Below, piece by piece: positions 6,001 through 9,000 of a DNA stretch of 40,921 nucleotides; the stretch's first letter is position 1; each line of letters starts with the position of its first letter. Origin of the DNA: an uncultured Nitrososphaeraceae archaeon (GTDB taxonomy: Archaea; Thermoproteota; Nitrososphaeria; Nitrososphaerales; Nitrososphaeraceae); assembly GCA_963729045.1 (NCBI GenBank), contig CAVSMN010000006.1, positions 1 through 40,921 of the forward strand, given 5' to 3'. The position numbers were made by a program.

Positions 6001-9000
6001 ACCCTCAGCCATGATGGATGGCCAGGTAAAATCTATAAGAGATATTCTTGATGATAATGAATTTAAGGATACACTAATAATGGGATATTCTGCCAAACAG
6101 GCATCATCTTTTTTTTCTCCATTTAGAGACGCAGCACACTCTAAACCTGAATTTGGAAATAGACTTTCATATCAAATGAGCTATCATAATTCAAGAGAAG
6201 CCAGTAGAGAAATTAAATCAGATGTAGAAGAAGGTGCAGATGTACTAATGATAAAACCAGCGATACCCAATTTAGATTTAATTTATGCTGCAAAGCAAAA
6301 TACTCTTCATCCTATTGCAGCATATAGTGTATCTGGAGAATATTCCATGATAAAAGCAGCTACGTTGAATAATTGGATGGATGAAAATCTAGCTGTTACG
6401 GAATCTCTGACGGCTATCAAACGAGCAGGTGCAAATATTATAATATCTTATTATGCAAAAAAAATGGCAGAAATTTTAAGGAATAGTTAGAGAAATGAAA
6501 GTTTAGTTTGGTTTGATATAGAATAGTCAAACATTAGGTAATCAAGTATAATACTATAGAAAATTATAAAAAAATTAAGGTATTGGAGAGAACACATGAA
6601 TGTCTGTATCTTTCCCATCGGCCACGTATACATCTCCTTGGGAATCCAATGCAATTCCGACCGGATCCTCAACCCTCTCATGTAATGCACCTGTATTTCC
6701 AAATTGAGTGATATACGTACCATTATTGTAAAAACTTGAATTCTGTTGTTATCACTATCTGACACGTAAACATTGTTAGCAGGATCTATTGCTAAATCTA
6801 TAGGTGCTTTAAATTGACCATTGCCTGATCCGAAGGTTCCGAATTTCATCAAGTAATTTCCATTCTGATCGAATTTTTGTACCCTGTTGTTACTAGAATC
6901 AGTTACAAAAATATTATTATTTGAATCCACGGCTACATCCGCAGGATTATTAAATTGACCATTACCAATACCCGGAGACCCAAAACTCATCATGAAATAC
7001 CCATTCGGATCGAATTTCTGTACGTTATTATTTTCTCCAAAGTCTGTGGCATAAAGATTATTTTCTTTGTCCACGCCGACACCACCTGGATTAATAAATA
7101 ATCCAGGACCAAGACCAAATGATCCTATAGATCGAATAAATGTGCCATTGGAGGTAAATTCTTTTATTGCATAAGTGGGATTTCCAAAGTCAGCTATGTA
7201 AACAGAATCATTGGAATTTATTGCAATGCCAGCAGGATTAGTAAAGTACTGTGGCCCATTGCCAAATGTACCAAAACCAAGGATAAATGTGCCATTAGGA
7301 GTAAACTTTTGGATCATTTTGGTTGTATATCCGGCAAAATCTGATACATACACATTATCTTCAGAGTCAACACCGATACCAGAAACCTGGTTAAATTGAC
7401 CTTGAGCAACACCTTTCTCCCCCCACATAGTTTTATGTGCAAATTCGAGGGCATATGCAGAGAAGTGGCTTGCCGTTAATAACATCACACCAATTACAAG
7501 TGTGCTTAAAATAGCAAATGGAATAAGCTTCATCTCGTAATATCAATGATCCATTATTTAAATAGTTTTTTAAAGTCCAAAAATAAAAAGAAGAAAAATT
7601 CGGTTATTTAATGATCCAGCGTATTATTACCGGGTCCATTTTGTAGAGGAGAATTCTGAATGGACCTGTCAAATTCAGGGCTCGCCACTATTCCAAATAT
7701 GGTATGTGAATCGCCAAAATGATGATCTACACTTTCAGGATCAAGCCATATTGATATTACACTCTTATTTGACAATGTAATGGAAGTAGGAATGTCAAGT
7801 GCAGGACCTTTGGCAAGGCTAACAGTGGAAGTCCCATTATAGAATGTAGAATTAGTATCAGATTGCGATGAATTTAACAAAGTAAAATCAGTTACAGTAT
7901 GTGTATGTCTACCAGTACCATCAGGTCGAATCATTTCAATTGCTGCATTAAATGAACTACTGTTTGTATCAGAGGAGGTATCAGTAGCGTTAGGTAAACT
8001 TGCTCTCCATACTCCTGCCAGTACCCAATCAATTGTACCGTTATTATCCTGTGTTAATCCAGTAATAGGTCCAAAAACATAAGTATTGTCAAGAAAATCA
8101 ATAGGCAATGCCAAAGTGGTAGTTGCAATCAAGCCTAAAAAAGCAAAACCACTTATCAACATAACAACAAGGATTAATGTTACATAATTTTGCATTAACT
8201 GTTATGGACATTTGCCTTTATTATCTTTTATGAATTTCTTATTAAAGATAAATTAAGAAGTGATTAAAGTATTTTGAAAGATCTGTCCATAAAGAGATAG
8301 TCCAGCAGTTGACAGGTTTTCCTACCTAGCCACTTTCGGTGATCTGAATTTTCTAAAAAATAATTATTAATTCAAAGAATTTTACAACCTATTAATTTCT
8401 GTCTATTTAAGAATACGCAGATAAATGATTAGACATATAAGTGTATGACTTTTTATAATAGGTATGAGTTTTTTACAGCATTTAACTTTTATGCTTGCTG
8501 TAATACTCGCAACTATATTCATTATCTCATTAGTTTTTAATCAAACAATGACCTATTACAGGATTCTAGAAAAAGCGAGAAAATTTGGAAAAAAAACCAA
8601 AATCAGGAAACAAGCAGCTAGTTTTTAAAATCATGTTGTCGATTATTTAGGATACATTTTTAATCATCCTCTAACGTGCCAAATACTAAGATTTAGAATT
8701 CAGATGTTTCAATAAACCAAAATCGTGATTAAATCACACTGAAGGTCAAAATATTGGGACCGCTGCAATAGATAAAATCATTACAGAAGTAATGTCAGCC
8801 TTTTAGTAGACCATTCCTAGAATTTGCTAAAAGATTGTCACTAAACAATGATATTCTAATAAAGTTACAAATATTATGTGAGTTGGGTTTCTGGAATAAT
8901 TATTACCATAATTGGTGTAATATTTTATTCGATTTCAAGCATGCTGCCTCCTTGTGCAAATACCATAGCGAAGATAGTAGGGTTTATTCTAGCAATAGTT

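Follow-up and report, generated by a model that had tools for sequence, protein, structure and literature searches.

An exported, multi-copy family of eight-stranded β-barrels with a conserved Met/His3 set in soil ammonia-oxidising archaea: a possible extracellular metal-binding domain

YceI and BcnA (PDB 1y0g and 5ixh) are exported, soluble, eight-stranded up-and-down barrels that bind isoprenoids or antibiotics at a site within the barrel. ZinT/YodA is a cell-envelope, calycin-like barrel that serves metal acquisition under limitation, and its three-His metal site, which includes an HxH pair, lies between two domains and not inside the barrel. CopC, CusF and PCuAC are small exported β proteins with His and Met as copper ligands. 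Eight-stranded barrels also form the C-terminal part of hemophilin, HphA and the TbpB handle (7re4, 8gm3 and 3v8u), which have an extra N-terminal domain; hemophilin reportedly binds haem elsewhere than in its C-terminal barrel. A passage of PMC8420045 places lipocalins throughout life except in Archaea, and a large archaeal family of soluble eight-stranded barrels is of structural interest for that reason.

Here we describe such a family from a contig of an uncultured Nitrososphaeraceae archaeon (CAVSMN010000006.1 of assembly GCA_963729045.1, contig C6 below), whose 40,921 nucleotides were analysed as one window. The gene under study encodes the protein P0001 and is followed on the same strand by a second gene for an exported protein; the features are as follows.

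7608..8195, minus strand: barrel gene (P0001), 195-aa exported protein, stop codon included
8109..8195, minus strand: signal peptide, residues 1–29, assigned by eye from its own sequence and those of orthologues, with a candidate cut after T-L-A
7683..8087, minus strand: predicted eight-stranded up-and-down β-barrel domain, residues 37–171, from the AlphaFold2 strands and fold matches over 37–171
7899..7934, minus strand: hairpin M88-I-R-P-D-G-T-G-R-H97-T-H99 with the Met and the HxH pair, from the translation
7713..7721, minus strand: H159-F160-G161, third histidine, in the strand 7–8 loop, from translation and conservation
7534..7607, minus strand: spacer of 74 bases between the barrel gene and the NHL gene, bridged by one RNA contig
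6487..7533, minus strand: exported NHL-repeat β-propeller gene, downstream of the barrel gene (Pfam NHL, E 7e-34)

Three orthologues keep the start M-Q/R-N-Y-V, and in two of them a stop codon lies two codons upstream; the orthologues carry A-M-A at the cut position of P0001. A helix at residues 5–20 of the AlphaFold2 model falls within the signal-peptide stretch, no domain lies between the signal peptide and the barrel, and a relative annotated as 'exported protein' has been seen in proteomes. The signal peptide is conserved across orthologues, and P0001 is an exported protein with a likely cut site after residue 29. Because its predicted mature N-terminus is Leu, the protein would have no N-terminal histidine brace. 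Family members contain 3.0 N-glycosylation sequons per 100 aa, compared with 1.5 after shuffling, and the mature barrel protein is probably N-glycosylated; the supplement of a glycoproteomics paper (2,190 characters) does not list the proteins. RNA contigs from four soil metatranscriptome studies overlap the barrel gene (window 7607–8179), and one of them (run X2, record 13, window 7210–7758) bridges the spacer to the NHL gene, although a two-gene contig does not prove a single transcript. RNA cover was absent at window 8246–8500 in four RNA runs, a gap that hints, weakly at best, at a transcript ending close to the barrel start codon.

The barrel family has no Pfam, NCBIfam or arCOG assignment. 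P0001 had no match in NCBIfam, its best Pfam match (E 0.22) covered only the N-terminal helix, and no Pfam family was matched by more than two of 82 aligned members scanned singly. The best match in a profile search of PDB sequences was Intimin (E 0.39), and the ESM Atlas gave no usable match for the family. Of the profiles of the described systems, YceI (PF04264) did not match P0001 at E ≤ 10 and was not among the 25 commonest families listed for the 82 members (E ≤ 1), while the lipocalin, CopC, CusF and PCuAC profiles neither matched P0001 nor appeared among the families listed for the 82 members. The copper binders CopC, CusF and PCuAC also differ from the family in fold. With ZinT/YodA, the family shares a three-His set that includes HxH, but no Pfam ZinT match was found. 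The survey's finding that this is an exported, unnamed, multi-copy family outside Pfam thus holds. At E ≤ 1e-3, the family amounts to 347 cluster representatives among 1.84 billion proteins.

In the source genome, a protein search recovered all ten places at which the survey had located paralogues, together with a 30-residue fragment at C21:31892, and a profile search at E ≤ 1e-5 brought the count to 13 matches by adding C10:11129, C12:230575 and C1:41054. The suspicion that some copies are the same loci was borne out, since C6:1–9840 is syntenic with C14:9844–1 (97.2% match), the whole of C22 matches C20:102952–126492 (87–97%), and C7:180–186 kb overlaps C21:168–175 kb (85–89%). When these overlapping stretches are merged, about ten distinct loci result, rather than the seven or eight first estimated. 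Beyond this genome, the family occurs in 76 of 80 other Nitrososphaeraceae genomes and in 18 of the 18 genera searched, with 1–16 copies per genome and up to 16 in the source genus. It was detected in none of 114 genomes of the sister family f2 in one search, in none of 43 in another, and not in 300 other genomes of the phylum. Among the genomes searched, it is found only in soil ammonia-oxidising archaea (Nitrososphaeraceae), and the proposal that it is a component of ammonia-oxidising archaea (AOA) in general has to be withdrawn. The sister family f2 is equally copper-dependent, and its lack of the barrel family counts against a copper reading.

A literature search with three N. viennensis locus tags of family members found no paper, a search combining ammonia-oxidizing archaea, copper, β-barrel and histidine found only AMO structure papers, and none of the matches listed paired Nitrososphaer* with lipocalin, YceI, calycin or β-barrel. 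In a published comparative table, three N. viennensis members are placed in three separate 'families'; these proteins are recognised here as one family with a single putative Met/His3 site.

The AlphaFold2 model, built on the 82-sequence alignment, had a mean pLDDT of 86.1 and a pTM of 0.71 and confirmed the eight-stranded up-and-down barrel that had been described before. Its strands span residues 40–49, 55–66, 81–89, 96–113, 116–127, 130–142, 146–151 and 165–169, with a pLDDT of 93–98 in most 10-residue blocks of the barrel, and a C-terminal helix follows at 173–180 (pLDDT about 67–84). As reported earlier, the fold matches are to small generic barrels: OmpA (Z 10.9), PagL (Z 9.9), BcnA (Z 9.0, rmsd 2.9, 119 aligned), hemophilin (Z 8.8) and YceI (Z 8.6, rmsd 3.0, 118 aligned), with a second YceI-type match to 1wub (Z 8.3). 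Foldseek gave no match at E ≤ 0.001; its weak matches included nitrophorins (E 0.013) and hemophilin (E 0.017), and nitrophorins and histamine-binding proteins span E 0.013–0.06. ZinT was absent among the fold matches listed, which does not exclude a likeness to ZinT. The model itself is confident, and its fold matches are generic only.

The top-scoring OmpA-type barrels (1qjp and 3nb3; rmsd 2.8, 113 aligned) match in topology only. W57, W63, F82, F104, I101 and I139 occupy the barrel interior, and the outward positions 83, 85, 87, 98, 100, 105, 133 and 140 are variable and mostly polar or charged (K, E, T, N). Since the outward residues are polar and sequon-rich, the barrel does not sit in lipid, and an OmpA-like membrane barrel is ruled out by this variable outer face and the enriched sequons. 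These archaea are not known to have an outer membrane. Membership among HphA-type haemophores was also rejected. The eight-stranded topology is shared with hemophilin, HphA and the TbpB handle (Z 8.8, 8.5 and 7.6; identity 5–13%), but only their C-terminal barrel aligns (model residues 37–171 with chain 155–264 of 7re4), and their extra N-terminal domain is absent here. YceI and BcnA resemble the family in export, solubility and size, and their ligand site within the barrel corresponds to that proposed here. No sequence relation to the family was found, however: structural alignment gives 8% identity, and the M..HxH..H set is missing from both.

Residues were counted in the 150 best family representatives, which were not selected for motifs. 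M88 (145/146), H97 (142/147), H99 (141/147) and H159 (134/139) are each kept in 96–99% of them, along with G42 (125/126), W57 (126/126), G61 (130/131), G93 (144/146), G121 (146/147), F160 (129/138) and G161 (136/138). These residues, which the survey had called invariant, are near-invariant in the larger sample, but T137 (52/146), D152 (111/144), P131 (118/146) and F82 (125/140) from the same list are merely common. In the source genome, the three His are kept in 12 of the 13 profile matches; for the Met, the corresponding alignment column was read in the C12 and C10 paralogues only. All four sites are intact in 206 of 216 sequences that cover them, and the three His are lost jointly in 3 of the 216 (P0125, P0195 and P0199), for an expectation of about 0.006 if losses were independent. 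The replacements at the His positions differ among these three proteins, which are not nearest neighbours in the tree. By this joint loss, the three His behave as one functional unit.

The conservation pattern also suggests where these side chains point. Positions 97, 99 and 101 would face inward because their neighbours 98 and 100 are variable and polar, and the same alternation, with 82/84/86/88 conserved, would direct the side chains of both strands into the barrel. In an up-and-down topology, Q48, W57, M88, H97, H99 and the 152–164 loop are at the same barrel end. Covariation couples position 86 to 101, and loop positions 152, 154 and 163 to 46, 49, 59 and 91 at the His end. We infer that M88, H97, H99 and H159 may meet at one site inside one barrel end. 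Met also fills position 90, which shares the face of M88, in 43 of 146 representatives, giving MxM + HxH + H, a combination of ligands that is typical for copper sites.

A barrel without any metal site, acting as a ligand-binding or anchoring module, is an unlikely explanation for this set. Such a barrel might take an isoprenoid lipid as YceI does, or form a stalk for surface enzymes, with the His engaged in hydrogen bonds or sensing pH. BcnA and YceI, which score best among the soluble fold matches, do bind lipid or antibiotic, and the barrel usually follows the signal peptide as the first domain, with enzyme domains of various kinds behind it, an arrangement seen in anchoring modules. This explanation, however, leaves the near-invariant Met and the three jointly lost His without a reason, and also the rise under copper limitation described next.

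The genome G265 encodes proteins identical to N. viennensis NVIE_006180, AIC15369.1 (A0A060HFH9) and AIC16885.1, which allowed the family to be mapped to published data. Under copper limitation (PMC7785015, Dataset S1), all three mapped members were raised: NVIE_016960 (log2FC +1.62, adj p 2e-79; row 118 of the sheet for p < 0.01, with 3,187 genes in all), NVIE_006180 (+1.50, adj p 3e-46) and NVIE_011380 (+0.90, adj p 2e-19). Only ranks carry weight here because 1,547 of the 3,187 genes changed at p < 0.01 in this experiment (PMC7785015). The fourth member corresponds to NVIE_026110 (+0.69) or to NVIE_026120 (−0.34, not significant). According to PMC7785015, N. viennensis likewise raises its CopC/D genes when copper is limiting. 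Of the three mapped genes, two are also raised in biofilm (+0.82 and +0.87), so the response of the family is not copper-specific. The published copper-limitation promoter motif (PMC7785015) was absent upstream of the four G265 family genes at up to three mismatches, and none of the four is near that genome's CopC/D genes. As protein, one mapped family member is plentiful in the N. viennensis proteome; NVIE_011380 was covered to 59% by 8 peptides, and it appears in membrane-fraction gel bands B18, B21 and B22 (PMC10030591 supplement). N. franklandianus orthologue accessions are absent from the supplements of the biofilm paper.

The same data bear on whether the metal would be copper. NVIE_011380 is two genes from a cbtA/cbtB cobalt-transporter pair that rose together with it (+1.59 and +1.16), and because of this the treatment may have limited other metals too. 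A barrel akin to the three-His zinc binder ZinT/YodA could accordingly hold zinc, nickel, cobalt or iron, since a three-His site is not specific to copper in general; in addition, a metallo-β-lactamase is fused to the barrel in P0103 and P0159, and a metallo-β-lactamase gene lies 2.5 kb from the paralogue at C7:161107. We consider a metal other than copper improbable, given that the nearly invariant Met88 and the frequent Met90 favour copper over zinc and that the treatment that raised the genes was, by the account of it in PMC7785015, designed as copper limitation.

Fusions link some members more directly to copper. A cupredoxin (blue-copper) domain follows the barrel in P0083, P0107 and P0110 (3 of the 23 longest representatives scanned), that of P0107 having a C-x2-H-x4-M stretch, and G184 contains a 457-aa ORF with both barrel and cupredoxin matches. 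The barrel itself is not a cupredoxin: it has no cupredoxin match, Cys is absent from 97 of 150 representatives, and the cupredoxin occurs only as a separate fused domain. Besides the metallo-β-lactamase, the fusion partners are DUF7482, dienelactone hydrolase, a chagasin-type inhibitor, Ig-like domains and a glycosyltransferase. The commonest long form is the DUF7482 fusion; the model of one such protein, P0106, has a mean pLDDT of 45.5 and cannot be used beyond the barrel, P0106 lacks any relative in the PDB, and no mention of DUF7482 was found in the literature. DUF5980, matched in one fusion protein at E 0.0026, fell below the cut-off and did not recur among the 82 members. The diversity of partners with no link to copper counts against a copper reading.

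These fusions could also mean that the barrel houses a catalytic or redox metal centre, in a small extracellular metalloenzyme or electron-transfer partner rather than a carrier, to which the fused cupredoxin would feed electrons as a type-1 site serves a type-2 site. The enzyme-like strictness with which the three His and the nearby Met are kept agrees with this, as do the C-x2-H-x4-M cupredoxins placed after the barrel. On the other hand, most members consist of nothing but a barrel of about 130 residues, the side chains that fill the interior leave little room for a substrate, and fusion partners are diverse. With copper in short supply, a copper enzyme would more often decrease, yet three members increase, and we regard a redox centre as having only a small chance of being correct.

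Near the paralogue at C20:71614 are a 499-aa CopD-domain gene, at about 3 kb, and a multicopper oxidase, at about 6 kb. Cupredoxin genes are not enriched near the family (4 of 53 loci within 5 kb, 2.9 expected, P 0.34). The survey's metal-handling reading gains from the rise of the three mapped N. viennensis members. The locus in the window is distinctive in another respect. The barrel-NHL pair lies within a hemA-hemB / hemL-hemC-hemD cluster in all four genus genomes examined, and its order on one strand between hemB and hemL is kept in G159, G120 and G171; the NHL copy of the window diverges from its orthologues after residue 268. This context gives weak support to haem as the ligand. A tetrapyrrole, haem or corrinoid, could sit at the open barrel end with His/Met or bis-His axial ligation, as in nitrophorins or bacterial haemophores; His and Met are a common haem ligand pair, and the weak Foldseek matches include proteins of this kind. 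Such a ligand is nevertheless very unlikely. The hem genes run on the other strand from the pair, the hem context is confined to one paralogue and absent from the other loci and those of G265, large side chains pack the barrel interior, and the hemophilin match covers the barrel and not the reported haem site.

Taken together, we tentatively prefer an extracellular metal-binding, probably copper-binding, domain. The barrel would be soluble and stay at the cell surface, either on its own or leading a larger surface protein as its first domain. One open barrel end would form a single site from H97, H99, H159 and M88, capped by the 152–164 loop, and would bind a transition-metal ion, most likely copper. 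The family would then serve soil ammonia-oxidising archaea (Nitrososphaeraceae) as a surface module for metal capture or hand-over; that the ligand is a metal, that the metal is copper and that the role is capture or transfer are each inferred. A bolder version, possible if doubtful, is that the family represents a new class of copper protein, whose mononuclear His3-Met copper site would lie buried in the barrel's open end and which soil AOA would use as their own extracellular system for capturing and delivering copper.

The energy metabolism of AOA relies on copper enzymes, and how copper is acquired and loaded outside the cell is largely unknown. The family is conserved, multi-copy, expressed in soils, detected as protein and raised under copper limitation in N. 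viennensis, the single model organism for which there are data, and at about 15 kDa it is an easily expressed target for metal-binding and structural work. If the bolder version is true, these barrels could supply cupredoxins, multicopper oxidases and perhaps ammonia monooxygenase, and the expansion to up to 16 copies in the source genus would have arisen as an adaptation to soils that are poor in copper or complex it. The family may also mark a split between soil and marine AOA in copper physiology.

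The barrel gene and its surroundings in the window are as follows; residue numbers are those of P0001, the barrel gene product.

7608-8195, minus strand: barrel gene, an ORF of 195 codons
6487-7533, minus strand: exported NHL-repeat propeller gene (Pfam E 7e-34)
3458-13381: tetrapyrrole cluster (sirohaem-type dehydrogenase, hemA, hemB, hemL, hemC, uroporphyrinogen methylase, hemD), interrupted by the barrel-NHL pair
13846-15334, minus strand: SufD-like gene, split into overlapping ORFs 13846-14712 (SUFBD_core) and 14612-15334 (SufBD_N)

The start of the barrel gene, M-Q/R-N-Y-V, is conserved across its three orthologues, two of which carry a stop codon two codons 5' of it. 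The N-terminus forms a hydrophobic helix (residues 5-20) in the AlphaFold2 model, which we read, by eye, as a putative Sec signal peptide; an A-x-A-type cut site is kept in the three orthologues (T-L-A in P0001, A-M-A in two orthologues). A Pfam scan of P0001 gave nothing beyond E 0.22 on the signal helix, and an NCBIfam scan gave no match. When 82 aligned family members were each scanned against Pfam, no Pfam family was matched by more than two (a chagasin-type inhibitor occurs in one of the 82), and the family profile matched no solved structure among PDB sequences (top, Intimin, E 0.39). A phmmer search against 1.84 billion cluster representatives returned 347 at E ≤ 1e-3, of which 172 reach E ≤ 1e-10; the named close relatives, nearly all from Candidatus Nitrosocosmicus, are all called 'hypothetical protein'. 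The family genes are without name, Pfam, NCBIfam or arCOG entry, and literature searches by locus tags, topic terms and DUF7482 found no paper text.

The window's assembly comprises 22 contigs and is 87% complete. A protein search of the whole assembly recovered all ten places where the survey's finding had put paralogues, as well as a 30-residue barrel fragment at C21:31892, and a profile search of the genome added three distant members (C10:11129, C12:230575 and C1:41054). The suspicion that some paralogue pairs are the same loci was borne out: C6:1-9840, in the window, corresponds to C14:9844-1 (97.2%), C22 shares synteny over its full length with C20:102952-126492 (87-97%), and C7:180-186 kb matches C21:168-175 kb (85-89%). 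These contig-end overlaps, at 85-97% identity, seem to reflect several regions that are present as two strain variants or as duplicates left uncollapsed, and paralogue counts are inflated because of them; about ten distinct loci remain after merging. The three histidines are retained in 12 of the 13 members and lost in the C1 copy.

Three of these loci show further peculiarities. The C1 copy (C1:41004-41774, L022:7004-7774) is a distant 256-aa member in which the histidines of HxH and HFG are lost; an additional amoC copy lies 2.4 kb away. C10:10354-11650 (L020:6355-7648) has two successive ORFs: the first, of 285 aa and exported, has a Q/N/T-rich repeat tail and an N-terminus that is cupredoxin-like by eye (no Pfam match); the second, of 120 aa, encodes the barrel's C-terminal half, with HTH and HHF. 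The profile match begins upstream of the second ORF, and the two could be one fusion gene that is broken or was called wrongly. C21:31892-32331 holds a 35-residue barrel remnant (DPESIDYHFG...) and, some 190 bases away on the opposite strand, a 59-aa remnant of a cupredoxin; the two may be what is left of a barrel/cupredoxin pair.

The AlphaFold2 model (82 sequences) has a mean pLDDT of 86.1 and a pTM of 0.71, with eight sequential strands in residues 40-169 and most 10-residue barrel blocks at pLDDT 93-98. Foldseek gave no match to it at E ≤ 0.001, and an exhaustive structure aligner returned generic 8-stranded barrels only: OmpA (Z 10.9, rmsd 2.8, 113 aligned), PagL (Z 9.9), Cap15 (Z 9.3), BcnA (Z 9.0), hemophilin (Z 8.8) and YceI (Z 8.6). 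According to the aligner's own note, models without relatives often have a top Z of 7-8. A repeat search gave the same picture, and these matches name a topology rather than a function. The matches to membrane barrels were discounted: outward positions are variable and polar, and glycosylation sequons occur at 3.0 per 100 aa in the family, twice the 1.5 of shuffled sequences.

Because the first alignment was motif-selected, we recounted the residues on the 150 best representatives, unselected and aligned to the profile.

Residues kept among the 150 best representatives (unselected)
G42: 125/126
Q48: 112/126 (Thr in P0001)
W57: 126/126
G61: 130/131
W63: 120/131
M88: 145/146
G93: 144/146
H97: 142/147
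H99: 141/147
G121: 146/147
H159: 134/139
F160: 129/138
G161: 136/138

Met88 had already been listed as invariant, and this stands; its tie to the histidine site is added here. Position 90, two residues past it, is also Met in 43 of 146 representatives. Conserved and variable positions alternate: strand 3 conserves 82 (F), 84 (A), 86 (F/I/L) and 88 (M) and varies at 83, 85 and 87, and strand 4 conserves H97, H99 and I101, with variable and often charged residues at 98 and 100, so that the side chains of M88, H97 and H99 would face the barrel interior. In the model, Q48 (end of strand 1), W57 (start of strand 2), M88 (end of strand 3), H97/H99 (start of strand 4) and the 152-164 loop with H159 would lie at one end of the up-and-down barrel. 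A simple covariation analysis of 169 sequences recovered the hairpin registers 123-137, 127-132, 46-59, 48-55 and 86-101; it also tied loop positions 152, 154 and 163 to 46, 49, 59 and 91, weak evidence that the loop may cap the His end. Among 216 sequences spanning all four sites, close relatives of the query included, M88, H97, H99 and H159 are all present in 206. All three histidines are lost together in three, each with different replacements, and none of these three has another of them as its nearest neighbour in an unrooted FastTree tree of 132 sequences; the other losses are two His in one sequence, one His in five and Met in one. Joint loss is what one would expect of residues functional only together. 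Rival readings are a catalytic or redox centre, which we think unlikely, and a site for another metal, as in ZinT, to which we also give a small chance.

The barrel and NHL genes are co-oriented, opposite in strand to the flanking hem genes, and sit between hemA-hemB and hemL-hemC-(methylase)-hemD; this order is unchanged in three other genomes of the genus (4/4 examined, the window included). A barrel holding a tetrapyrrole would suit such a place, but contexts elsewhere differ, and we consider this very improbable. The paralogue at C20:71614 has as neighbours a 499-aa CopD-domain gene, a multicopper oxidase and a further NHL gene; that at C7:161107 adjoins a NosD/beta-helix protein, with a metallo-beta-lactamase 2.5 kb away; and the contexts in G265, a genome encoding proteins identical to named ones of Nitrososphaera viennensis, differ again. 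Cupredoxin matches occur within 5 kb of 4 of 53 family loci in five single-contig genomes, against 2.9 expected (P 0.34), and gene neighbourhood therefore gives no argument for copper.

The window's NHL gene diverges from three orthologues past residue 268, where an unrelated tail begins. Compared with the window, RNA contigs carry one extra base at 6727-6729 in four runs and lack one base at 6569 in three (X2, X4, X5), so that this stretch is read in a different frame in the window. A 97% identical copy (C14:2300-3400) has an intact C-terminus and a frame change after about residue 38; these changes are either assembly error or decay. The split SufD-like gene, whose counterparts in the three congeners G159, G120 and G171 have 399, 500 and 333 aa, is probably another frameshift of this assembly.

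Among the 23 longest of 150 representatives, three are fused to a cupredoxin, three to DUF7482, two to a metallo-beta-lactamase, and one each to a dienelactone hydrolase, a mannosyltransferase and Ig-like repeats; twelve have no Pfam match above the curated cut-off. DUF7482 was present in all nine longer forms from a word-based search, and a 457-aa ORF of genome G184 has barrel and cupredoxin matches. This variety points to a mobile module, usually first after the signal peptide. It could also suit a non-metal ligand-binding or anchoring module, a reading we doubt; the His3-Met set speaks for a metal. Two G265 members (L037:5466-6257 and L038:5503-6348) carry long G-N-Q-T-T-T-like repeats, both between signal peptide and barrel and within the loop joining strands 2 and 3, which look like heavily N-glycosylated stalks.

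G265 encodes four family members. By exact look-up, three are identical to NVIE_006180 (AIC14821.1), AIC15369.1 (A0A060HFH9) and AIC16885.1 of N. viennensis; Reyes et al. 2020 (PMC7785015) list A0A060HFH9 as NVIE_011380 in the proteome sheet of their Dataset S1. The fourth, of 263 aa, was assigned to NVIE_016960 because of its equal length and because it directly adjoins the small-conductance channel gene NVIE_016970. In Dataset S1 (3,187 genes, 1,547 with p<0.01), copper limitation raised NVIE_016960 (log2FC +1.62, adj p 2e-79), NVIE_006180 (+1.50, 3e-46) and NVIE_011380 (+0.90, 2e-19). Observed values in the p<0.01 sheet drop monotonically with row number; NVIE_016960 is at row 118 and NVIE_011380 at 365, and NVIE_006180 must sit within rows 121-147, so all three rank within about the upper 4-12% of up-regulated genes. 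The locus-tag candidates for AIC16885.1 are NVIE_026110 (+0.69) and NVIE_026120 (-0.34, not significant). The published copper-limitation motif was not found, with up to 3 mismatches allowed, at the four G265 family loci. The family lies outside the copper island of N. viennensis, and its mature N-terminus would not be His. The cbtA/cbtB 'cobalt transporter' pair NVIE_011340/011350 (L036), two genes from NVIE_011380, also rose (+1.59, +1.16); either the treatment limits cobalt too or the transporter handles copper.

The NVIE_011380 protein was detected with 8 peptides (59% coverage; Dataset S1 proteome sheet) and, in the supplement of PMC10030591, in membrane-fraction gel bands B18, B21 and B22 only. 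Supplement file 2 of a biofilm study (PMC12448741) lists the three genes without arCOG, flags them 'AOA exclusive' and assigns them to three different protein families, with shifts of +0.82, +0.87 and -0.25 and TPM ranks of 1561, 523 and 427, respectively. The window's own barrel and NHL genes are matched from 6400 to about 8179 by 90-99% alike contigs of four soil metatranscriptome runs from four studies, one bridging the 74-base spacer; such contigs show presence, not level, and may include DNA carry-over. Those of three studies end at 8174, 8178 and 8179, within the ORF and 16-21 bases short of the conserved ATG (8195), with no RNA cover further upstream; one continues into adapter sequence. 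An A/T-rich stretch lies ~20-35 bases upstream of the ATG. The contig ends are compatible with a leaderless mRNA.

We tentatively read the barrel as an extracellular metal-binding domain with copper as first candidate, at not quite an even chance, because of the His3-Met set, often with a second Met, the joint histidine loss, export, up-regulation when copper is limiting, and repeated fusion to cupredoxins. Among the strongest points against copper are the absent copper-limitation motif, the lack of matches in the sister-family genomes searched and the unspecific fusion partners. A small exported metal carrier is a known kind of thing; the family and its combination of fold and site are new.

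The profile matched (E ≤ 1e-10) 76 of 80 other genomes of Nitrososphaeraceae, the window's soil lineage (74/78 without the two unpublished genomes G225 and G263), 57 of the 58 at least 90% complete, and all 18 genera, with 1-16 matches per genome. It matched one of two genomes of a further family (f5), none of 70 from eleven further families of the class, none of 114 of the sister family in the class sample, and, at E ≤ 1e-6, none of 300 other genomes of the phylum (43 of the sister family among them); these are samples, and absence means not found among the genomes searched. The barrel family characterises the soil lineage rather than ammonia oxidisers as a whole.
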